DNA from: a virus
Lineage: Duplodnaviria; Heunggongvirae; Uroviricota; Caudoviricetes
Virus record (IMG/VR): IMGVR_UViG_2713896906_000008
Length of the DNA stretch: 38,183 nt
Reading direction: 5' to 3' (one strand)
Part shown: positions 1 to 35,562 of the stretch, piece after piece
How the letters are laid out: every line of letters starts with the position of its first letter
How positions within the stretch are numbered: position 1 is the first letter of the stretch
Position numbers and translations under genes: made by a program
Notes under the pieces: model-generated
Database searches by the model: none
Told to the model about the DNA's origin: nothing
What the model saw: the letters and a program-made list of their open reading frames with translations, nothing else

Positions 1-1053
1 TTACGGGGTAATGCCAACCGCTGCCGCCACTTTGTCGCCACTTGGCAGCGTTGCCAGAGGATTGAAACGGAGCGCCGTTTCCAGATGATCCGGTGCCAGA
101 TGTGCGTAACGCATCGTCATTTTTATATCGTGATGTCCGAGGATTTTTTGCAAAGCAAGGATATTTCCACCCGACATCATGAAATGCGCCGCAAACGTAT
201 GGCGCAGAACGTGTGTCAGTTGACCGCGAGGGAGCACGATAGACGTTTTTTCCATCACGGATAAAAATTGAAAATAGCAGTCTGTGAAGAAATTGAAACC
301 ATCAAGCGCCATGATCTCTTCGTAAAGCTCTTTACTGATAGGGATGCTTCTGTTTTTCTTCCCCTTCGTTCTTACAAAGGTAATTCGGTATTTAGTCACC
401 TGTGAACGGGTAAGATTTATTGCTTCTCGCCAGCGTGCGCCTGTGCTTAAGCATATCTTGACTACCAGTGCCAGAATTGGGTCCTGACGTTTGCAATCAG
501 CCAGCAATTCAACAATCTGCTCATGGGTAAGCCATGCCATCTCTTTTTCTGCGATGGTGAATTTTCGCATGTTCTCCAGTGGGTTCGGATACGACCATTC
601 GCCCAGACGGGATAGTTCGCTAAAAACACTACTTAGATAGCTTTGCTCCAGGTTAATGGTGACCGGGCTTGCTCCTTTCTTCCATTTCTCGCTGAAGTAG
701 ATCTCGCCTGTCAGTCGTTTATCTCGATAGTGGGCAAACATTTTAGAGGTGAGATCGGTTGCAAGAGGATTGCCCAGAGCGTCAACCATCAACAGCAATT
801 TGTCATAGACATGCTGCCCAGCTGTCAGAGATTTACCATGTAGTTTGAACCATAGCTCAACCACGTCTTTCAGTGTTCGACGATCCACTGATTCACCCAG
901 CCAGGGCTTTGCTTCGGTTTCTTCCATCGTGTGACGCTCAAAAGCCAGTGCTTCGCCTTTGGTGGCGAATTGTTTACGCACACGACGCCCACTTCGTCCG
1001 GCGGGGTAACATTCGCAAAGCCATTTCCCTGTGGTGAGTTTTCGTACTGCCAT
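1..1053 (-). CDS. int: P2/186-family tyrosine integrase
   Basis: 350-aa ORF; C-terminal HVLRHTFAAHF...GHHDIKMTMRYAHL fits the tyrosine recombinase R-H-R-Y catalytic region; leftmost prophage gene as in P2/186. Window begins at its stop codon. Confidence 0.92.
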   Translation of the reverse strand: MAVRKLTTGKWLCECYPAGRSGRRVRKQFATKGEALAFERHTMEETEAKPWLGESVDRRTLKDVVELWFKLHGKSLTAGQHVYDKLLLMVDALGNPLATDLTSKMFAHYRDKRLTGEIYFSEKWKKGASPVTINLEQSYLSSVFSELSRLGEWSYPNPLENMRKFTIAEKEMAWLTHEQIVELLADCKRQDPILALVVKICLSTGARWREAINLTRSQVTKYRITFVRTKGKKNRSIPISKELYEEIMALDGFNFFTDCYFQFLSVMEKTSIVLPRGQLTHVLRHTFAAHFMMSGGNILALQKILGHHDIKMTMRYAHLAPDHLETALRFNPLATLPSGDKVAAAVGITP

Positions 1054-1133: not shown

Positions 1134-1664
1134 TTACCTTAATTTATCAAGCTCTCGTTTATTTCTTTTATCATGTATATCATTAAGAAATAATATATTA
1201 CTAGCAATGATACTAAATAACGCTATTATTTGTAGATATACTAATAACGCTGTGATAAAAAATCCAAACTTGCAGAACACGTGCTTATGCAAGGAAATGA
1301 AATCCAGATTTGAAAATATAGGTTTCGTTAAATTTATTATAACAATAGAAAATATTACAATAGCTGAAATTATAATGGTTTTCACTATCAGAGTAATTCG
1401 CTCAATATCTTTTTCTGTTTCCTTATGATAGTTTATACTAGTTATTGTTGATGGCTTTACAATTGAACTTACAGCTGCAGGGTAAATATATGCAAGCCAA
1501 ATACCTGCAATAGTGAAGATCATTGCAGAAATGTTTTGCAAGGTAGATAAAATATCTTTTATATCTGCATACGTATATTTATCTCCGAACAAATAAGCAA
1601 TAGCTATAATTGTTAGGAGAAAACATATGTGCAAAATTTTAGGTTTTATAATCATACTATGCAC
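1134..1664 (-). CDS. small inner-membrane protein with four predicted TM helices (cargo; RexB-like topology and position)
   Basis: 176-aa ORF with four hydrophobic segments; AT-rich; start overlaps stop of upstream 400-aa ORF (first ATG at 1655 lies 1 nt after the upstream TAG; track start 1664 is GTG). Confidence 0.6.
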   Translation of the reverse strand: MHSMIIKPKILHICFLLTIIAIAYLFGDKYTYADIKDILSTLQNISAMIFTIAGIWLAYIYPAAVSSIVKPSTITSINYHKETEKDIERITLIVKTIIISAIVIFSIVIINLTKPIFSNLDFISLHKHVFCKFGFFITALLVYLQIIALFSIIASNILFLNDIHDKRNKRELDKLR

Positions 1665-2859
1665 CTATTTTATGAATCTGCACTGTTGTATCATTATCAG
1701 CTTCTGGTTGTTCTATTATATCTTCATTTTTAAAACAATTCACCAAATCATTTCTATGAGCTTTTACTACACTCATTAAATATGAAGAAGAGTAATGTTT
1801 GTTTCTGTTAGAAAGGTCAACGTGAATTTCATGGCGATAAACATATTCATCTAACCAAGTAGTTGAACCATTTTTCCCATTTATTTTGAATCCGATGCGT
1901 GCGTGATCATTCCCTACATTCTCATTGTTGTTTTCTGTATCTTCTGAAATAGGATTGTGGTTTTCTATATATTCATCGATGAGTTTAGTGAACTCTTCAG
2001 GCGTAGGCGTTCCTTCGACTAATAATTCAACGCGATGTTTTTTTGATAAAATAGGAGAGCTTCTTGAGAAAACATCTCCAACTGCATCAAATAACTTCTG
2101 CCATTTTTCCCGTGTATCAGGTATGTTTGTTTCTATTACGTCATGGTAAACAATGTGAGTGATTTTTTTACACAGTTCTTCTATGTTTGCTCCACTCGTG
2201 ATCATCCTTGTTTGTTTAGTCTGTACTTTAAAAACTAAACTTTCATCATCACCTTGAGAAAAAAGAACACGTTTGTAATGAACGTCTTCAGGTGAGTCAT
2301 TACGAGGACGAGTCATATCTATGACTTTTTTATTAGGATGCTCCATCCTAAAGTCAACGTATGCTTTAATATAATGACAGAAAAGATCTGTATCCGTATT
2401 AGAACTTGGGAATCGTATGGATGCAATTTTGTTATATTCTGGAATTACCCAATAGTAGCAAGGTACGCCCCAGATATATTTACCGCCACCTTGAGTATCA
2501 GAGGCGGATACAACATTATCTGAAGTGCCGTCAATCTTACTTTCAGCATCTATACCTTGAATATTTCCAGAGTTATCACCGAGCGTTTTCCAGATAACAA
2601 ATAGATAATCTCCTGTCGTACTGTCATATGAAATATTTTTACAGTATGCTTTTGTTCTTCTATTATTATCCTTTCCCCATGGAACAGATTGTTCAACTGT
2701 TCTTGAACAGATCCAGCTATGTAAGTTACACAGAACATGGGATAAGTTCTTTTCGACTAATTCCGGCGATTTGCCTTGTCGTATTTTATAAAGGCCAAAC
2801 ATTTCTAAATCAAAAAATGTTATAATGCCGCGTTCAGTTTTAAAGTTGGTTTTACTCAT
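1657..2859 (-). CDS. hypothetical 400-aa soluble protein (cargo, co-oriented with cI)
   Basis: Long uninterrupted ORF in AT-rich island between cI and int; no motif recognised. Confidence 0.65.
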   Translation of the reverse strand: MSKTNFKTERGIITFFDLEMFGLYKIRQGKSPELVEKNLSHVLCNLHSWICSRTVEQSVPWGKDNNRRTKAYCKNISYDSTTGDYLFVIWKTLGDNSGNIQGIDAESKIDGTSDNVVSASDTQGGGKYIWGVPCYYWVIPEYNKIASIRFPSSNTDTDLFCHYIKAYVDFRMEHPNKKVIDMTRPRNDSPEDVHYKRVLFSQGDDESLVFKVQTKQTRMITSGANIEELCKKITHIVYHDVIETNIPDTREKWQKLFDAVGDVFSRSSPILSKKHRVELLVEGTPTPEEFTKLIDEYIENHNPISEDTENNNENVGNDHARIGFKINGKNGSTTWLDEYVYRHEIHVDLSNRNKHYSSSYLMSVVKAHRNDLVNCFKNEDIIEQPEADNDTTVQIHKIGA

Positions 2860-2939: not shown

Positions 2940-3821
2940 TTAATTCGAAATGATTGTGCTTCTTATGCATGCAACTACCTCGATATCAGAAAATGCACAT
3001 TCAAAGTAAGTTTCTTTACTTCTGATATTTATCATACCTTTAGGTAGCCTAGTAATTTGTCTGACGGAATAGGTTCCATCAATATTAATTAACCAGTATC
3101 CATCTAATACATCAGAAAATTTCTGATCACAGATGTATGCCACTAAACCATCCTGAACGACAATTGGTGCTGAAAGATTAGCGGGTAAAAATGACGAATC
3201 GAAAATATATGAGCCACTCTCAACCATTTTGCCTGCATTGAGATGAAATTTAGGCAGTTCTTTTACCGATGTTGTGAGAGCATTGTGCTCGCTGCCTTGT
3301 CCAGTGGCTAGCCATAAAAGAGAATTTCCTGTTTCCAACGAACATTTTATGATCCAATCAGCCGGGAATGTGTCTCGCAAATATCTATTTGCCATAGTGC
3401 TTTTAGATACATTCAGATGGTCGGCAAGTTCTTGTCTTGTTTTAAAGCCATACGCTTTCATTAGCCTGTCTATTGCATCACGTCCGCCTGAGTCCAAATT
3501 CAGATCGTTCCCAATTGGGGACTTCAGGGTGGTGGCTTGGGAAACGTGCTGAACCTTTGATGCAGTTGCCTTTGGCATGACCGGAGCCTCAGTACTCTGA
3601 GGGAATGGTACGCCTTTTCCGAATGAGAGCCACTCGATAGATGCACCCGTTTCAATTGCACACTGAATTACCCAGTCAGCAGGAAATACGTCACGCATCC
3701 AGCGCGTGCCCATAGTGCTTGCAGATACGTTGAACTGTTCGCACAGAGCTTGCCTTGTCTTGAATCCATACGCTTCAAGCATGCGCGTTATGACTGCTTG
3801 TCCTCCGTTTTTGAAATTCAT
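2940..3821 (-). CDS. cI: CI-type immunity repressor with tandemly duplicated N-terminal DNA-binding domain
   Basis: Two paralogous segments (LEAYGFKTRQALCEQFNVSASTMGTRWMRDVFPADWVIQCAIETGASIEWL and MKAYGFKTRQELADHLNVSKSTMANRYLRDTFPADWIIKCSLETGNSLLWL) resembling the 186 CI N-terminal domain, plus a C-terminal domain; divergent from apl/cII. Confidence 0.8.
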   Translation of the reverse strand: MNFKNGGQAVITRMLEAYGFKTRQALCEQFNVSASTMGTRWMRDVFPADWVIQCAIETGASIEWLSFGKGVPFPQSTEAPVMPKATASKVQHVSQATTLKSPIGNDLNLDSGGRDAIDRLMKAYGFKTRQELADHLNVSKSTMANRYLRDTFPADWIIKCSLETGNSLLWLATGQGSEHNALTTSVKELPKFHLNAGKMVESGSYIFDSSFLPANLSAPIVVQDGLVAYICDQKFSDVLDGYWLINIDGTYSVRQITRLPKGMINIRSKETYFECAFSDIEVVACIRSTIISN

Positions 3822-6001: not shown

Positions 6002-6855
6002 GCACCATCCTGAAATGGGCGGGAAATAAAACCGCCATAATGTCCGAACTGAAAAAACACCTTCCTGCTGGCCCGCGACTGGTTGAACCTTTCGCGGGTT
6101 CCTGTGCTGTGATGATGGAGACGGATTATCCAAGCTATCTGGTTGCGGATATTAATCCTGATTTAATCAACCTCTATAAAAAGGTTGCCGCTGATTGTGA
6201 ATCGTTTATATCTCGCGCCAGAGTTTTATTTAAGGAAGCAAACAGGGAGGTGGCTTATTACAACATAAGGCAGGAGTTTAATTACTCAACTGAAATTACT
6301 GATTTCATGAAAGCGGTATATTTCCTGTATCTCAATCGTCACGGTTACCGTGGTTTATGTCGCTATAACAAGAGCGGGCATTTCAACATTCCCTACGGTA
6401 ATTATAAAAATCCGTATTTCCCTGAAAAAGAAATTCGCACATTTGCAGAAATGGCCCAGCGAGCAACGTTTATCTGCGCCAGCTTTGATGAAACGCTGGC
6501 GATGTTGAAGGCGGGGGATGTGGTGTATTGCGATCCGCCGTATGACGGTACGTTTTCCGGCTATCACACTGACGGCTTCACTGAAGATGACCAGTATCAC
6601 CTGGCATCTGTTCTTGAACATCGGTCATCAGAAGGACATCCGGTCATTGTTTCTAACAGTGACACATCCCTGATCCGTTCGCTGTATCGCAATTTTACTC
6701 ACCACTACATCAAGGCAAAACGCAGCATCGGTGTGGCAGCTGGCGAGGGTAAATCAGCAACAGAAATCATTGCTGTTTCCGGGCCGCGCTGCTGGGTGGG
6801 ATTTGATTATTCGCGTGGCGTGGACAGTTCTGCCGTGTACGGAGTACGTGCATGA
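5998..6855 (+). CDS. dam: DNA adenine methyltransferase (Dam-like, N6-adenine)
   Basis: [16 protein letters not shown] (AdoMet motif) and DPPY (catalytic motif); ATGA overlap with the TraR-like gene; frame start at ATG 5998 rather than track start 5938. Confidence 0.85.
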
Positions 6856-9266
6856 GTCATGCCGATATGAACAACTGCTGCGGCTTTAACGAGGCTGCCG
6901 CATCGTTCTCATGGAACAGCCCGAAAAAGGCCATTAACCCTTATCTGGACCCGGCGGAAGTTGCGCCGGTTTCTGCGCTTTCAAACCTGATCACTCTGTA
7001 CGCTGCCGATAACGAGCAGGAACAACTGCGCCGCGAGGCACTGAGTGATCAGGTCTGGGAGCGTTATTTCTTTAATGAATCCCGTGATCCTGTCCAGCGC
7101 GAAATGGAGCAGGATAAGCTCATTAGCCGGGCAAAGCTGGCGCATGAGCAGCAGCGTTTTAATCCAGACATGGTCATTCTGGCGGACGTCAACGCCCAGC
7201 CTTCCCATATCAGCAAGCCGCTGATGCAACGTATTAAATACTTCAGCAGCCTGGGCAGGCCAAAGGCTTATTCCCGCTATTTGCGTGAGACGATTAAGCC
7301 ATGCCTGGAACGACTGGAGCATGTGCGCGACAGTCAGCTATCCACTTCTTTTCGCTTTATGGCAAGCCATGAAGGGCTGGACGGCCTGCTAATCCTGCCT
7401 GAAATGAGTCAGGATCAGGTGAAACGCCTGTCCACCCTGGTAGCTGCGCATATGAGCATGTGCCTTGATGCAGCTTGTGGTGATTTGTACGCCACCGATG
7501 ATGTTAAGCCAGAAGAAATCCGCAAGACATGGGAAAAGGTGGCAGCAGAAACCCTGCGACTGGATGTTATCCCGCCTGCGTTTGAGCAACTTCGTCGGAA
7601 AAGAAACCGCCGTAAACCCGTGCCCTATGAACTCATTCCGGGGTCGCTGGCGCGTATGTTGTGCGCTGACTGGTGGTATCGGAAATTATGGAAGATGCGT
7701 TGCGAATGGCGGGAAGAGCAGTTGCGCGCTGTCTGCCTGGTTAGCAAAAAAGCATCACCTTATGTCAGCTATGAAGCCGTGATGCATAAACGTGAGCAGC
7801 GCCGTAAGTCGCTGGAGTTTTTCCGTTCTCATGAACTGGTGAACGAAGACGGCGACACGCTGGACATGGAGGGTGTGGTAAACGCCAGCAGCAGCAACCC
7901 TGCGCATCGCCGCAATGAGATGATGGCCTGTGTTAAAGGCCTGGAGCTTATCGCGGAAATGCGCGGTGACTGCGCCGTTTTCTACACCATCACCTGTCCG
8001 TCACGTTTCCATTCCACGCAAAATAACGGCAGGCCCAACCTGACCTGGACAAATGCGACGGTAAGACAAAGCAGTGATTATCTGGTCGGTATGTTTGCTG
8101 CATTTCGTAAGGCGATGCACAAAGCCGGATTGCGCTGGTATGGCGTGCGGGTGGCTGAGCCGCATCATGACGGTACAGTTCACTGGCACCTGTTGTGTTT
8201 TATGCGCAAAAAAGATCGTCGCGCCATTACTGCTTTGTTGCGTAAGTTTGCCATTCGTGAAGACCGAGAGGAGCTGGGGAATAACACGGGACCACGCTTT
8301 AAGTCTGAGTTGATTAACCCGCGCAAAGGAACGCCGACAAGCTACATCGCGAAATATATCAGCAAGAACATTGACGGGCGTGGTCTGGCTGGCGAGATCA
8401 GCAAGGAAACGGGTAAATCTCTGCGTGATAACGCTGAATACGTGAATGCCTGGGCGTCTTTGCATCGTGTTCAGCAATTCCGCTTCTTTGGCATTCCGGG
8501 GCGCCAGGCTTACCGTGAACTGCGATTGCTGGCTGGTCAGGCGGCAAGGCAACAGGGGGACAAAAAAGCAGGTACGCCGGTACTGGATAACCCGCGCCTT
8601 GATGCAATCCTGGCTGCTGCTGATGCTGGTTGTTTTGCCACTTACATCATGAAGCAGGGCGGCGTACTGGTTCCCCGCAAATATCACCTTATCAGAACAG
8701 CTTATGAAATTAACGAAGAGCCGACCGCCTATGGCGATCACGGTATTCGTATTTATGGCATCTGGTCACCCATTGCAGAGGGCAAGATCTGCACTCATGC
8801 AGTGAAGTGGAAAATGGTTCGTAAGGCCGTTGACGTTCAGGAGGCGGCAGCCGACCAGGGCGCTTGCGCCCCTTGGACTCGTGGCAATAACTGTCCCCTT
8901 GCTGAAAATTTGAACCAACAGGAGAAAGATAAATCAACAGATGGGGATACCAGAACTGACATTACCTGTATGGATGACAAGGAGTTGCACGATTACCTGC
9001 ATAGTATGAGCAAAAAAGAGCGCCAGGAACTGGCAGCAAGATTACGCCTGGTGAAACCGAAACGGCGTAAAGACTACAAACAGCGAATTACAGAGTATCA
9101 GCGTCAGCAGCTCGTCTATGAACTGAAGTCAAGAGGATTTGATGGCAGCGAGAAAGAGGTCGATTTACTCCTTCGCGGTGGCAGTATTCCGTCAGGAGCA
9201 GGCCTGCGTATCTTCTATCGGAACCAGCGTTTGCAGGAAGATGATAAGTGGCGGAACCTGTATTAA
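6852..9266 (+). CDS. A: rolling-circle replication initiator (P2 gpA family)
   Basis: 804 aa; HUH-like VHWHLLCF and paired-tyrosine motif [10 protein letters not shown]; ATGA overlap with dam. Confidence 0.9.
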
Positions 9267-17337: not shown

Positions 17338-18396
17338 ATGAAGAAGAATACCCGCTTTGCTTTTAACGCTTACCTGCAGCAACTGGCGCGTCTGAACGGT
17401 GTGGCAGTTGAAGAACTGTCCAGCAAGTTCACCGTAGAGCCGTCCATGCAGCAGACATTGGAAGACCAGATCCAGCAGTCCGCCGCTTTCCTGACGCTGA
17501 TTAACGTCACGCCAGTGACTGAGCAGTCCGGTCAGCTGCTGGGGTTGGGAGTTGGCAGCACCATTGCCGGAACCACTGATACCACCGCGAAAGAGCGTGA
17601 ACCTGTCGATCCGACGCTGATGGTCGATGTGGAATATAAATGCGAGCAGACCAACTTTGACACGGTACTGACCTACGCGAAGCTGGACCTGTGGGCGAAG
17701 TTTCAGGATTTTCAGGTGCGTATCCGTGACGCCATCGTGAAACGTCAGGCACTGGACCGCATCATGATCGGCTTTAACGGCGTGAAGCGTGCGAAAACCT
17801 CCAACCGTAGCGAAAACCCGCTACTGCAGGATGTGAATAAAGGCTGGCTGCAGAAAATCCGTGAGGATGCACCGGATCACGTCATGGGCAGCACCACCAC
17901 GGGCGGTGAAACCACACCGGGTGCGGTGAAAGTCGGGAAAGGTGGCGAATATGCCAACCTGGACGCCGTGGTGATGGATGCCGTTAACGAGCTTATCGAC
18001 GTGGTCTATCAGGACGATGACGATCTGGTGGTGATTTGCGGTCGTGAACTGCTGTCTGACAAGTATTTCCCGCTGGTCAACAAAGAGCAGGAAAACAGTG
18101 AAAAACTGGCTGCCGATATGATCATCAGTCAGAAACGCATGGGTGGCCTGCAGGCCGTGCGTGCGCCGTTCTTCCCGCCGAATGCGCTGCTGATCACCCG
18201 TCTGGATAACCTGTCCATCTATTGGCAGGAAGACACCCGCCGCCGTTCAGTTATCGACAACCCGAAACGTGACCGGATTGAAAACTTTGAATCCGTTAAC
18301 GAAGCCTATGTGGTTGAGGACTACCGCTGCGCCGCACTGGTGGAAAACATCCAGATTGGTGATTTCAGCGCCGCCGCAGCCGAAACCGGAGCGTAA
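17338..18396 (+). CDS. N: major capsid protein (P2 gpN family)
   Basis: 352 aa, follows O. Confidence 0.9.
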   Translation: MKKNTRFAFNAYLQQLARLNGVAVEELSSKFTVEPSMQQTLEDQIQQSAAFLTLINVTPVTEQSGQLLGLGVGSTIAGTTDTTAKEREPVDPTLMVDVEYKCEQTNFDTVLTYAKLDLWAKFQDFQVRIRDAIVKRQALDRIMIGFNGVKRAKTSNRSENPLLQDVNKGWLQKIREDAPDHVMGSTTTGGETTPGAVKVGKGGEYANLDAVVMDAVNELIDVVYQDDDDLVVICGRELLSDKYFPLVNKEQENSEKLAADMIISQKRMGGLQAVRAPFFPPNALLITRLDNLSIYWQEDTRRRSVIDNPKRDRIENFESVNEAYVVEDYRCAALVENIQIGDFSAAAAETGA

Positions 18397-21933: not shown

Positions 21934-23199
21934 TTAATGAGTTTTAAGTGCCTCTGTTAAAGATTTTCGATGATGTTCCCAAAAGGCAAAATCATTTACG
22001 TTTGAACTAAACCTCAAATGCTCTTCAGAATATATTGTTTCACGGTGATCGCATCCAAGAAGACATAGAATTAATCTGGTTAGATATATTGTTAAGTGTT
22101 CACAAGCAACTGCAATGTTTATCAAGTTGTCACTTGGTATAATTACACCATGTATAATTATATTTCTGATTTCAGAAAGTCCTAGCTTACCAGATTCATT
22201 AAATAATGGCCATAAGTCATGAGTATGGATTAAATGTTCTTTAAGAAATTCTTGTGTGGCATCTTTTAATGATATTCTATTCAGTTCTCCTAGTTTGCTT
22301 TTTATTTTTCCTCTAGTTGTTGAATCTTTGATAACGTCCTGGGTGATGACTCTTTCAATTGTTTGTCTTAATGATTTAAACTCGCTTTCACATAGAATGA
22401 AGGACGTATTGTTTTTTTCTTTATGAGTTAAGATAATAGATTCAAAAGATTGGAAAAGTGAAAGGTATCGAGACTCAAGATATTGGTTTGATGCATTGAG
22501 GACATTAATGGCTAATCGGATGTTCTGTCTGTAATGGGATGACAAATATGTGTGAAACATATTTTCAATATTTTCTTTGGCTTGTAATGGCATCATCAAG
22601 TGTTCTTTTTTGGTATCCTTAATAGGATTTTTTATCCTACAGCGAAAAACTGTATATACACCATCATTAGATTTTAGGTTCCAGTAACGACAAACTACTT
22701 TGTTACTATTGAGAAATGATAAGATATCATTAAATGCGTCAATTTTGTCAATGTAGTTATTTCTTACATCATCAATGGTTAAATTAGAGTTATTGGACTT
22801 TATTTTTAGGATTTGTTTTGTGCTGATTTCAAATTTTTCATTGCGCTCTAGTTTTGATTCGATATCTAATTTTATATCTTCGTTATTATTAAGTTTAACA
22901 ATAATAGGCTCTGATTTTGTAAGAGATATGTTACCATCCGAAGATGGATTGTACTGAATGTTAGGGGAGAGTAGTTGATGGTCACTGTTGTAGAATGTTA
23001 TTTCCGTATCCGGCGTATTATGTGCTTTATTATTTATAATGACTTCATTGGGAATGATGTTAAATGTATAGTGTTGAGTTTTTCCTGAGTGACAGTCGGC
23101 GATGTTTTCTATTCTACAATCGATTAGTTTTATCACTGAGCGAACATCACCATTTACATAATGAGTACAAAATTCAATGTCTAAATTATTTTTTTTCAT
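21934..23199 (-). CDS. hypothetical 421-aa cargo protein; possible C-terminal HEPN-like domain (Rx4H motif)
   Basis: AT-rich ORF between S and V; C-terminal alpha-rich region with SEIRNIIIHG (R-x4-H). Confidence 0.65.
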   Translation of the reverse strand: MKKNNLDIEFCTHYVNGDVRSVIKLIDCRIENIADCHSGKTQHYTFNIIPNEVIINNKAHNTPDTEITFYNSDHQLLSPNIQYNPSSDGNISLTKSEPIIVKLNNNEDIKLDIESKLERNEKFEISTKQILKIKSNNSNLTIDDVRNNYIDKIDAFNDILSFLNSNKVVCRYWNLKSNDGVYTVFRCRIKNPIKDTKKEHLMMPLQAKENIENMFHTYLSSHYRQNIRLAINVLNASNQYLESRYLSLFQSFESIILTHKEKNNTSFILCESEFKSLRQTIERVITQDVIKDSTTRGKIKSKLGELNRISLKDATQEFLKEHLIHTHDLWPLFNESGKLGLSEIRNIIIHGVIIPSDNLINIAVACEHLTIYLTRLILCLLGCDHRETIYSEEHLRFSSNVNDFAFWEHHRKSLTEALKTH

Positions 23200-23395: not shown

Positions 23396-23413
23396 TGTGT
23401 GGTAAGCGACACA
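23396..23413. promoter_or_regulatory. Ogr/B-type late-activator dyad TGT-N12-ACA (late promoter of V operon)
   Basis: TGTgtggtaagcgacACA about 60 bp upstream of V start. Confidence 0.6.
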
Positions 23414-25887: not shown

Positions 25888-27614
25888 GCACAAAATTTTA
25901 TACCCTGCTGACGGATATTGGCGCGACGAAACTTGCCAGCGCCGCCGCGCTCGGTGTGCCTTTAAAAATTGCCCATATGGCGGTCGGCGATGGCGGCGGA
26001 ACATTGCCAACGCCGGACGCAAAGCAGACAGCATTGGTAAATGAGAAACGCCGGGCTGCGCTGAATATGCTCTATATCGACCCGCAGAACAGCAGTCAGA
26101 TTATTGCTGAACAGGTGATCCCTGAAAACGAGGGCGGTTGGTGGATACGTGAAGTGGGCTTGTTTGATGACTCCGGGGCATTGATTGCCGTAGGCAACTG
26201 CCCGGAAAGCTATAAGCCGCAATTGGCTGAAGGCAGCGGGCGCACCCAGACCGTGCGCATGGTGCTGATTACCAGCAGCACGGACAATATCACCCTGAAA
26301 ATCGACCCTGCCGTCGTGCTGGCAACCCGTCATTATGTAGATCAACAAATAGAAATTCATGAGCAATCGCGCCGCCATCCTTCTGCGTCTTTGACAGAAA
26401 AGGGATTTGTACGTCTGTATAGCGGTGTGGAAAGCAATGATGAAACAGTCGCTGCAACGCCAAAAGCAGTGAAAATAGCGATGGATAATGCCAGCGCCAG
26501 ACTGGCAAAAGACCGCAATGGTTCTGATATTCCCAATCCGGCACTGTTTGTTCAGAATCTGGGATTGAAAACGACTGTTGATAAAGCTGCATCAGCGATT
26601 CAGCCAGGAGATTATGGAATTGGCCTGGCTTATCTGAAAACCATGGGAACCAAATCGCAATTTTTTGCTTATGGTACAGCTGTCGGCTATCCAGAAGTGC
26701 CAACACATGGTGCTGGTTTCCAGGCCTGTTACAACGACAATCGACGTGCACAAATTTATGTCGCTAATGATGGCAAGATGTACTGTCGATTCAGCATGTT
26801 ATCGAAAATTGCCGATGATGAAACACCGTGGAATCAGGTGTTCACCAGTGCACATTATCCAGAAGCATCAGTGAGTGTTAAAGGAATGGTGCAACTGGGG
26901 AACGATGTAAACAGCGTGTCAGAAAATGTTGCGGCGACATTGAAAGCGGTAAAAATTGCGATGGACAACGCCAGCGCGAGACTGGCAAAGGACCGCAATG
27001 GTGCTGATATTCCTGACCCGACTTTGTTTATTCAGAATCTGGGACTTAAACCGACGGTTGATAAGGCTGAAAGTGCTCTGCAACAGGGAGCATACGGAAT
27101 CGGTAGCAATAATAACTACGAAATGGGTGAGGTTTCACAGTTTCTTGCATATTCAGGTAATGCAGATGAAGTGCCATCGAATGGTGCAGGTTTTCAGGCT
27201 GCGTATAACAAGAACAGACGCGCGCAGATTTTCATCACCGGAGCAGGGGAAATGTATCACCGTTTCAGCGGCTCTGATACGGTTAAAGACAATACAACAC
27301 TATGGCGTCGGGGTGTTTGTGAAGATGAATTTTCATTTGGCAGCAATTATCACCGAATAACTGGCGGTGTGCTGAAGCAGTTTTTTAACAGTTATTTTTC
27401 CGGGGCAACTGGTGTGGTGAATAAAGAGTATCAGGTGAATTTTCCGACACCATTTGCCCGTCAGTGCTGGTACGTGATCCCCGTTTTCCGTTCGTCACAC
27501 GGTGGGAGTGTTGAGGGTGTCGCCATTACAGCTATTACTGCAACTGGCTTTACTCTGAGCATCACCGGAGATAACGGTGGATGGAATATTGGGTTTATTG
27601 CGGAGGGGGTCTGA
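25884..27614 (+). CDS. H: tail fiber protein H (with internal ~160-aa tandem duplication)
   Basis: Conserved N-terminus MSTKFYTLLTDIGATKLASAAALG...; ATGA-coupled to I. Confidence 0.88.
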   Translation: MSTKFYTLLTDIGATKLASAAALGVPLKIAHMAVGDGGGTLPTPDAKQTALVNEKRRAALNMLYIDPQNSSQIIAEQVIPENEGGWWIREVGLFDDSGALIAVGNCPESYKPQLAEGSGRTQTVRMVLITSSTDNITLKIDPAVVLATRHYVDQQIEIHEQSRRHPSASLTEKGFVRLYSGVESNDETVAATPKAVKIAMDNASARLAKDRNGSDIPNPALFVQNLGLKTTVDKAASAIQPGDYGIGLAYLKTMGTKSQFFAYGTAVGYPEVPTHGAGFQACYNDNRRAQIYVANDGKMYCRFSMLSKIADDETPWNQVFTSAHYPEASVSVKGMVQLGNDVNSVSENVAATLKAVKIAMDNASARLAKDRNGADIPDPTLFIQNLGLKPTVDKAESALQQGAYGIGSNNNYEMGEVSQFLAYSGNADEVPSNGAGFQAAYNKNRRAQIFITGAGEMYHRFSGSDTVKDNTTLWRRGVCEDEFSFGSNYHRITGGVLKQFFNSYFSGATGVVNKEYQVNFPTPFARQCWYVIPVFRSSHGGSVEGVAITAITATGFTLSITGDNGGWNIGFIAEGV

Positions 27615-28048
27615 TGAGTTATTTTTACAGTCCATCAAGAAATGCATTTTATAACAGTGAACTGAAATCTGATTATTACGATGCTCTCGATGCGTGGCCG
27701 GATGACTGTATTGAGGTAAGTGATGCAGTCTATCAGGAGTTTTATCTTGGTTATCGGGAAGGGTACAAAATGGTTGCAGGCACTGATAACCAGCCATCAT
27801 GGGAAGAACGTCCACCATTGACCCATGAGGAACAGATGGAACAGGCAGAAATGATGAAACAGATGCGCATTAATGAGGCTAACAACCTGATTAATGAAAA
27901 ACAATGGCCATCAAAATTACAGCTTGGCAGGCTGAACGAAATGGAGACAACCAGATTTAATGCGATGCTGGATTATCTTGAGTTACTTGAAAATATTAAT
28001 GTAAGTGATGCCCCGGATATAGTCTGGCCTTTATCACCAGAAGTCTGA
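27614..28048 (+). CDS. G: tail fiber assembly protein G
   Basis: ATG overlapping H stop (TGATG); position after H. Confidence 0.75.
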   Translation: MSYFYSPSRNAFYNSELKSDYYDALDAWPDDCIEVSDAVYQEFYLGYREGYKMVAGTDNQPSWEERPPLTHEEQMEQAEMMKQMRINEANNLINEKQWPSKLQLGRLNEMETTRFNAMLDYLELLENINVSDAPDIVWPLSPEV

Positions 28049-28054
28049 ATACAT

Positions 28055-28070
28055 CCCCGCGTCTGCGGGG
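28055..28070 (+). terminator. GC hairpin (ccccgc-gtct-gcgggg) after G
   Basis: 6-bp perfect stem, weak U-tract. Confidence 0.4.
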
Positions 28071-28087
28071 ATTGCTGTATCCGCCGT

Positions 28088-28105
28088 TGTGCCATTTTTC
28101 ATACA
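28088..28105. promoter_or_regulatory. Ogr/B-type late-activator dyad TGT-N12-ACA (late promoter of FI operon)
   Basis: TGTgccatttttcatACA about 85 bp upstream of FI start. Confidence 0.65.
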
Positions 28106-28180
28106 AACCACATAACGTGCATCCTGCTCGTTTCAACCAGAACATAGGCAGACCCCCTCTACTACCGGAGAGACTGCCTT

Positions 28181-29353
28181 ATGGCTCAGGATTACCACCA
28201 CGGGGTGCGCGTTGTTGAAGTCAACGAAGGCACCCGATCCATTACCACGGTGAGCACCGCCATCGTGGGTATGGTCTGCACGGGCGATGATGCCGATGCA
28301 AAAATGTTTCCTCTTAATAAACCCGTGCTGATCACTGATGTGCTGACTGCCAGCGGTAAAGCGGGTGAATCCGGTACGCTGGCCCGTTCGCTGGATGCCA
28401 TTGCTGACCAGGCAAAACCCGTGACCGTTGTTGTGCGTGTGCCGCAGGGTGAAACGGAAGAAGAAACCACGACCAATATCATCGGCGCAGTGACTGCTGA
28501 AGGTAAAAAAACAGGCATGAAAGCTCTGTTATCTGCCCAGTCACAGCTCGGCGTTAAACCGCGCATTCTCGGCGTGCCAGGCCACGATAACAAAGCCGTT
28601 GCGACTGAGTTGCTGAGCGTGGCGCAAAGCCTGCGTGGGTTTGCTTACCTGTCAGCGTATGGCTGCAAGACAGTGCAGGAGGCGATCACTTACCGCGAAA
28701 ACTTCAGCCAGCGCGAAGGGATGCTGATCTGGCCTGACTTTACTGGCTGGGACACGGTGCTGAATGCCGAAGCAACTGCATATGCCACCGCCCGTGCGCT
28801 CGGTCTGCGCGCCAAAATTGATGAGCAGACCGGGTGGCACAAAAGCCTGTCCAACGTGGGCGTGAACGGTGTCACCGGAATTTCTGCTGATGTGTTCTGG
28901 GATCTGCAGGACCCGGCAACCGATGCAGGTCTGCTGAACCAGAACGACGTCACCACGCTTGTGCGTAAAGACGGTTTCCGCTTCTGGGGTTCCCGCTGCC
29001 TGAGTGATGACCCGCTCTTTGCCTTCGAAAACTACACCCGCACGGCGCAGGTGCTGATGGACACGATGGCAGAAGCACACATGTGGGCGGTGGATAAACC
29101 GTTTAACCCGTCGCTGGCCCGCGACATTATCGAAGGTATCCGCGCCAAAATGCGCAACCTGGTCAGTCAGGGCTATCTCATTGGTGGTGATTGCTGGCTG
29201 GATGAGTCGGTGAACGACAAAGACACGCTGAAAGCCGGAAAACTCACCATCGACTACGACTACACGCCAGTGCCGCCACTTGAAAACCTGATGTTGCGTC
29301 AGCGCATCACCGATCAGTACCTGGTGAATTTCGCCAGCCAGGTCAGCGCGTAA
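28181..29353 (+). CDS. FI: contractile tail sheath protein FI
   Basis: 390 aa, position and size. Confidence 0.92.
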
Positions 29354-35108: not shown

Positions 35109-35327
35109 ATGATGATTTGCCCACTGTGTGGAAGTGCCGCCCATACTCGCAGCAGTTTTCAGGTATCTTCATTGACTAAAGAGCGTTACAACCAGTGCCA
35201 GAATATTAACTGCAGCCATACTTTTGTAACCCATGAAACTTTTGTTCGTTCGATTGCAACGCCAAAAGAGTCAAATCCGGTTCAGCCGCATCCAATGAAA
35301 TCAGGACAGGTGGCGCTCTCTCTTTGA
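35109..35327 (+). CDS. ogr: late gene transcription activator, zinc-finger (P2 Ogr / 186 B family)
   Basis: MMICPLCGSAAHTRSS...ERYNQCQNINCSHTF matches Ogr CPLC...H...C.N.NC zinc-binding pattern; rightmost prophage gene. Confidence 0.85.
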   Translation: MMICPLCGSAAHTRSSFQVSSLTKERYNQCQNINCSHTFVTHETFVRSIATPKESNPVQPHPMKSGQVALSL

Positions 35328-35407
35328 CGCTGCCGCCATTTTGTCGCCATCGTTAAAAAACAGTGCTTCTAACGTCATGATTTTAAACGGCATAAATTTC
35401 AGGCAAC

Positions 35408-35450
35408 AAAAAACCCATCAACCTTGAACCTAAATGGCGGGGTTGATGGG
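35408..35450 (-). terminator. rho-independent terminator downstream of ybjL (10-bp stem cccatcaacc/ggttgatggg + T6 on minus strand)
   Basis: Inverted repeat 35414-35423/35441-35450, A-run 35408-35413 on plus strand. Confidence 0.6.
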
Positions 35451-35562
35451 CTCCACAAAATGGGGACATCAAAGAAAAGCAGTGGCACTAATTAAGACTG
35501 ATGCCCCGAAGAAAAGTTCTGCGCTTGTGCAAAAAAATTTCATTCTCAGGGCAACTTCAGGT

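Follow-up and report, generated by a model that had tools for sequence, protein, structure and literature searches.

An apparently ordinary compact junction at the Z/fun position between G and FI of an Elveevirus-like P2-family prophage

Introduction

In phage P2, the fun(Z) gene lies on the minus strand between the tail fibre assembly gene G and the tail sheath gene FI, in an interval of 2,377 bp. The same position (Z/fun) has been described as a secondary hotspot, where defence genes occur alongside tail-fibre swaps and invertases (PMC13586616; bioRxiv 10.1101/2024.10.15.618418), and PMC9122126 covers the main hotspot. The stretch of DNA analysed here (38,183 nucleotides, referred to as the window) carries a P2-like gene order with 132 bp between G and FI, which raises the question of what, if anything, this position holds. 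An earlier note, prepared from the letters of the window, had claimed that the position is empty and that the interval contains only a hairpin and the dyad of the FI late promoter. Both elements were recovered in our analysis; the spacer contains no gene or conserved ORF, and no fun(Z) or neaT homologue was found in the window. The spacer is very probably an ordinary compact junction of two late operons in a P2-family (Peduoviridae, Elveevirus-like) prophage, with no accessory gene. The features discussed below are listed in Table 1.

TABLE 1. Coordinates of the features discussed (positions in the window unless P2 is named)
Feature	Position	Strand	Basis
Integrase	1-1053	-	
PDC-M18 B (PADLOC candidate defence system), int-CI, overlaps A	1134-1664	-	E 5e-24
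PDC-M18 A (PADLOC candidate defence system), int-CI	1657-2859	-	E 2e-36
186-type CI repressor	2940-3821	-	
Replication endonuclease (A)	6852-9266		
Rv2179c-like 3'-5' exoribonuclease, downstream of A	9754-10308	+	
HipA_C-like kinase, PADLOC candidate PDC-M03	10324-11235	+	E about 4e-36
HIRAN-domain protein, PADLOC candidate PDC-M03	11232-11936	+	E about 4e-36
GC-rich perfect hairpin followed by TTTT (terminator-like), about 50 bp before the cos-like sequence	12248-12267		
cos-like sequence GGCGTGGCGGGGATACGAG	about 12318-12336		matches about 14/19 bases of P2 cosL
ORF of 216 aa, between cos-like site and Q	12834-13484	-	
Matching TGT-N12-ACA dyad, divergent P/O late promoters (comparison site)	16392-16409	+	motif
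ORF of 421 aa, S-V junction (P2 orf30 position)	21934-23199	-	
Matching TGT-N12-ACA dyad, V late promoter (comparison site)	23396-23413	+	motif
Module swapped relative to CFT073 phi-b0847 (C-terminal part of H, G, hairpin)	26343-28082	+	blastn blocks, alignment
G-type tail fibre assembly gene, last in V operon	27614-28048	+	phrog_188 E 2.5e-49, match from residue 12
Short ORF, 40 aa	27973-28095	-	ORF list
Short ORF, 49 aa	27996-28145	-	ORF list
G-FI intergenic spacer, 132 bp, without gene (Z/fun slot, unoccupied)	28049-28180	.	ORF map, relatives, Rfam, RefSeq
Stem-loop directly 3' of G stop, where 186 has terminator t45; without T-run	28049-28080	+	sequence, fold
Short ORF, 48 aa	28072-28218	+	ORF list
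TGT-N12-ACA dyad (TTGTG from 28087), predicted Ogr/B-type late activator site of promoter P_F	28088-28105	+	motif, alignment
-10-like element GAACATAGG	28140-28148	+	aligns with P2 GAAAAT preceding the mapped start 17626-8 and with 186 pJ start
Shine-Dalgarno GGAGAG, 8 nt 5' of FI ATG	28167-28172	+	sequence; GGAG invariant in 11 relatives
FI tail sheath gene, first in F operon	28181-29353	+	phrog_23 E 8.5e-146
Ogr/B-type zinc-finger late activator (CX2CX22CX4C), predicted factor for the dyad	35109-35327	+	NF007241 E 3.6e-28
Host sRNA gene rybB, directly right of ogr	35405-35483	-	RF00110, 106.5 bits
YbjL-type permease, right of rybB	35563-37248	-	
P2 V-operon terminator, in G-FI gap	15639-15666 (P2)		
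P2 fun(Z), 528 aa, in G-FI gap	15675-17261 (P2)	-	
P2 pF activator site, in G-FI gap	17555-17583 (P2)		
P2 mapped pF start, in G-FI gap	17626-17628 (P2)		

Genome organization and location of cargo genes

The genes of the window follow the P2 order, Q-P/O-N-M-L-X-Y-K...R-S/V-W-J-I-H-G/FI-FII-E-T-U-D-ogr, with an integrase and a repressor in addition, and are colinear with those of CFT073 phi-b0847 and GF47. The window is recognizable as an Elveevirus-like Peduoviridae (P2-like) prophage with host flank. Its FI protein is 99% identical to that of phage Cartapus, 98 to 99% identical to those of Elveevirus members, and 68% and 70% identical to P2 FI and 186 J, respectively. On the other side of the spacer, the ORF map places the stop codon of G at 28046-28048; the longest form of the G ORF begins at 27581, and the likely start at 27614 overlaps the stop of H. 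E. coli GF47 and 2014C-3307, which have G, the spacer, and FI in common with the window, carry this G-type gene with an annotated length of 435 bp.

The earlier note had located the cargo of this prophage at the cI-int, A-cos, cos-Q, and S-V junctions, and ORFs are indeed found at all four. Two genes between int and CI match PADLOC candidate system PDC-M18 and gave no Pfam or NCBIfam match; between A and the cos-like site, the HipA_C-like and HIRAN genes together match PDC-M03 A+B. The position of the cos-like site supports the division of the cargo into A-cos and cos-Q groups. The 216-aa and 421-aa ORFs at the cos-Q and S-V junctions had no match in Pfam, NCBIfam, or PADLOC. At the right end, rybB and the ybjL-type gene follow ogr, and since the rcdA ... 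ybjL location is shared by CFT073 phi-b0847, attR (the right end of the prophage) would be located at or beside rybB.

No conserved gene in the G-FI spacer

ORFs overlapping the spacer are 22 to 49 aa in length, and the three of 40 to 49 aa, which were covered by a PHROG search, matched no PHROG family. The presence of these three (48, 49, and 40 aa), together with a stable hairpin that could mark the 3' end of an RNA, leaves room for the idea that a small gene has gone unannotated in the spacer, either a microprotein or a small RNA, for instance one derived from the 3' untranslated region of G and ending at the hairpin. However, the small ORFs were rejected as genes, as their start, frame, or length was not kept in 10 close relatives, and the blocks that are invariant among 11 close relatives (the hairpin arms, TTGT..CAT..ACA, CGTGC, CCAGAACATA in the -10 region, GGAG, and ATG) coincide with regulatory motifs, so that the conservation pattern of the spacer reads as regulatory and not as codon-like. 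No Rfam family rose above noise in the spacer at gathering or permissive thresholds; a weak match (E 1.5) to the RsmY terminator stem was dismissed as generic. Similarly, the RefSeq/PGAP annotation of 133 E. coli genomes with a related spacer leaves the matching region blank, and tblastn searches with P2 fun(Z), tin, old, and orf30 and with CFT073 neaT produced no match anywhere in the window. A hidden gene of this type is highly improbable, and just as improbable is the more specific proposal that the hairpin forms the 3' end of a stable sRNA processed from the G 3' untranslated region or that one of the short ORFs is translated. If either were true, the "empty" slot would yield a product after all.

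Comparison with P2 and 186

A synteny comparison with P2 and related prophages, which the earlier note had named as the way to check its claim, gave the same flanking genes, with the slot filled in P2 and compact in the window. The P2 interval extends from the end of G at 15274 to the start of FI at 17652, and its promoter-proximal part can be aligned with the window. P2 and the window share a pF-type promoter, with the activator site ~55 nt 5' of the mapped start in P2, whereas fun(Z) on the opposite strand and the new V-operon terminator at 15639-15666 are found only in P2. We also noted in P2 a T-tailed stem-loop just 5' of the pF activator site (17519-17551), which is unannotated in the P2 record and can be aligned with terminator t45 of 186 over the right arm and tail of the latter.

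The closest annotated counterpart of the compact layout is 186 itself, in which the G-J(FI) gap is 128 bp (132 bp in the window) and carries the annotations terminator t45, B-protein site, promoter pJ, and the pJ start point. The two spacers correspond block for block (stop, hairpin, TTGTGCCA...CA dyad, -10, Shine-Dalgarno sequence, and ATG), although the flanking proteins of 186 are only about 70% identical to those of the window. The annotated B site of 186 is identical to the window sequence at 15 of 20 bases, the dyad centre precedes the ATG by 81.5 nt in 186 and by 84.5 nt in the window, and the distance from TTGTG to the ATG is 94 nt in the window and 91 nt in both P2 and 186.

Distribution of the compact state

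A scan with an FI profile of one genome per species yielded 80 loci in Enterobacterales. The ORFs upstream of FI were classed with an iterated tail-fibre-assembly HMM and an invertase HMM, which replaced an earlier tblastn classing with six tail-fibre-assembly proteins that had missed many loci. An assembly gene was followed directly by FI, with a gap of 116 to 227 bp, at 19 of the 80 loci; a recombinase (invertible fibre cassette) stood directly upstream of FI at 12; and at 28, FI was separated from the last recognised assembly gene by other ORFs, many of which, in Photorhabdus and Xenorhabdus, are alternative fibre genes in inverted orientation. The remaining loci were unclassifiable (13) or had too little upstream sequence (8). 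The 19 compact loci, together with 186, Klebsiella 4LV2017 (spacer of 133 bp), and the window, formed the set of 22 compact spacers examined further. In nearly all 22, the stop codon is closely followed by a hairpin, often with unrelated stem sequences.

Within E. coli, about 1009 complete genomes carry this FI type. Of these, 118 have a spacer that is homologous along 80% or more of its length and has nothing annotated in it, and 35 have the same G in addition. Among eight evenly spaced samples of E. coli genomes with this FI, three are compact (131, 106, and 106 bp) and five have invertase cassettes. Prophages of the Cartapus type, which are Elveevirus members, likewise have the TGT-N12-ACA dyad, in a 142-bp gap 5' of their nearly identical FI, but they differ from the window in having an inverted alternative fibre tip, a second assembly gene, and a Gin-like recombinase between the first assembly gene and FI. 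In Enterobacter sp. kpr-6 (about 6200-8000), an FI of 93% identity directly follows lysis and R/S-like ORFs, and no I, H, or G homologue was found upstream of it; this prophage may be rearranged or partly deleted.

The empty state is thus common and has already been described, and we claim nothing new for it: it is annotated in 186, and the literature treats the slot as an optional moron position.

Late promoter of the FI operon

The sequence of the dyad in the spacer, TGTGCCATTTTTCATACA, is a perfect TGT-N12-ACA, which is the published consensus of the four Ogr-dependent late promoters of P2 (PMC3931495, citing Christie & Calendar 1985 and Julien & Calendar 1995). The dyad corresponds in alignment to the B-protein site annotated in 186 and to the pF activator site of P2, and it is invariant across the 11 close relatives. 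The bare motif occurs at chance level across the whole window (9 found versus 10.6 expected), and TTGTG-N12-CA, counted over the same range, is not enriched either; therefore, the argument for the dyad rests on placement and conservation and not on enrichment. With respect to placement, three of the nine sites are located upstream of O/P (16392), V (23396), and FI (28088). All three have the form TTGTG...ACA, and at each of these promoters CATA[A/G]G/T follows the dyad at a similar offset. In addition, the dyad begins 87 to 94 nt before the FI ATG in 20 of the 22 compact loci.

Transferring the mapped starts of P2 and 186 to the window predicts a transcription start at ~28152, and the dyad centre (28096.5) lies at about -55 (about -55.5) relative to this position. 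A scan of positions 27500 to 28700 with the sigma-70 consensus revealed no promoter on the plus strand and none in the spacer, as expected for an activator-dependent promoter, for which such a scan is uninformative. The window itself encodes a homologue of Ogr/B with the motif CPLC-X22-C-X4-C, which is 51% identical to P2 Ogr. The dyad, the lack of a good sigma-70 -35/-10 pair, and a cognate activator in the same element are features of a P2/186-type late promoter.

On this basis, transcripts of V-W-J-I-H-G would meet a GC-rich stem-loop just past the G stop codon. Some 15 bp beyond the stem-loop, an Ogr/B-type activator would bind the TGT-N12-ACA dyad, centred ~55 nt upstream of the start, and would recruit RNA polymerase to a promoter with a weak -10 and no -35 element, driving expression of FI-FII-E-T-U-D. 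While the motifs and their spacing were read directly from the window, activator binding, a start near 28152, and termination at the hairpin are predictions from homology to the mapped sites of P2 and 186.

Hairpin downstream of G and its altered tail

The core of the hairpin (28053-28072) has the sequence ATCCCCGC-GTCT-GCGGGGAT and forms a perfect 8-bp stem with six GC pairs that begins 5 nt after the G stop codon; pairing of ATACA with TGTAT lengthens the stem to 28049-28080. The fold has an energy of -16.4 kcal/mol (z = -2.57), with equally good folds in 7 of 200 shuffles, and the window contains 8 distinct perfect hairpins of at least 8 bp, compared with 3.1 +/- 1.7 in shuffles. The stem hardly varies inside the close subfamily, and the hairpins cannot be aligned between subfamilies.

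The sequence that follows the stem is GCGGGGATTTTTTT in most relatives, which carry TTTTTTT there, and GCGGGGATTGCTGTAT in the window and near-identical E. coli copies. The 4LV2017 and WP5-S18 versions of the hairpin are among those with the T-run. The tail of the window hairpin reads TGCTGTATCC, and its best 8-nt stretch holds four T residues; the altered tail pairs with the upstream ATACA, so that CCGCCG remains and there is no U-tract. Because of the missing T-run, the hairpin was not called in a terminator scan of positions 27500 to 28700. Compared with the window, 186 has a weaker hairpin (-6.8 kcal/mol) with a T-rich tail. Of the two hallmarks of an intrinsic terminator, a GC-rich stem-loop just after the last gene is present, and a T-run directly after the stem is absent. 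Designation of the hairpin as a terminator is therefore only partly justified, and a terminator role in this prophage is doubtful.

These observations bear on the view that the hairpin is no terminator here, that the V operon reads into FI, and that the stem-loop at most stabilises or processes the mRNA. The replacement of the T-run and the failure of the scan to call the hairpin speak for it, but both the stem and its location are conserved in relatives whose terminators are canonical, partial termination is still possible with weak U-tracts, and the equivalent element of 186 is annotated as a terminator. We regard such complete loss of the function as a real possibility, though one with a somewhat less than even chance. 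With the T-run lost, termination of the V operon at the compact junction is probably weak or leaky. Read-through into FI would run in the same direction and within the same late class, and no consequence of it is expected. The missing T-run is the sole local peculiarity of the spacer.

Mosaic joint and the CFT073 sibling

The closest E. coli sibling of this prophage, CFT073 phi-b0847, represents the occupied allele of the slot. Its backbone and that of the window form colinear blocks that are 87 to 96% identical (blastn) and that extend into the host flank (ybjL, ybjM, and grxA); therefore, the two prophages occupy the same chromosomal site (rcdA ... ybjL). From 28083 onwards the pF promoter sequence is the same in both. 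CFT073 phi-b0847, however, holds neaT between G and FI, where it replaces the hairpin segment and is encoded on the opposite strand. This AT-rich gene, which encodes a 343-aa acyltransferase, is a published moron, and its slot has been called "moron position 2" (PMC3573123). Conversely, the S-V junction is empty in CFT073 (68 bp) and holds the 421-aa ORF in the window.

Nucleotide homology with CFT073 ends at 26342 and resumes at 28083, about 5 nt before the TTGTG of the dyad. It follows that the variable part comprises the C terminus of H, G, and either the hairpin or cargo and that the promoter belongs to the conserved right side. The onset of homology within the spacer differs among relatives: it lies at 28083 for CFT073, at 28135 for Klebsiella 4LV2017, and at 28180 for the Cartapus type, in which homology to the window begins only at the FI ATG. 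These three different onsets identify the spacer as a recurrent recombination joint (mosaic) of the tail-fibre and sheath/tube modules, with no single fixed site, as judged from the alignments.

Such exchange could also mean that the slot is secondarily empty, i.e., that an ancestral cargo gene or invertase cassette was lost when the segment containing the H C terminus and G was replaced from a donor with a compact junction. The non-homology of 26343-28082 to an otherwise 87 to 96% identical sibling, the differing points at which homology begins, the prevalence of invertase cassettes among the sampled E. coli prophages with this FI (5 of 8), and the restriction of the exact G plus spacer to just 35 genomes all speak for such a loss. 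On the other hand, compact junctions that carry a homologous promoter occur in many genera, and 186 has one. Moreover, P2 retains a t45-like relic beside pF, downstream of fun(Z), and the compact state therefore looks ancestral, the fun(Z) block of P2 having apparently entered such a junction between G and the original terminator of the V operon. Secondary loss is thus conceivable but rather unlikely, and an ordinary compact junction of the V and F operons is the reading that we prefer.

Implications

For annotation of this prophage, the result is a correct negative that carries little weight alone: no lysogenic-conversion or defence gene is located at the Z/fun position. The junction also provides a clean empty-site reference, as the border at 28083, beside the dyad, can be set against the neaT-containing locus of CFT073, and this helps to delimit cargo in related prophages. 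Finally, siblings residing at one chromosomal site fill different hotspots, the window at int-CI, A-cos, cos-Q, and S-V and CFT073 phi-b0847 at G-FI.
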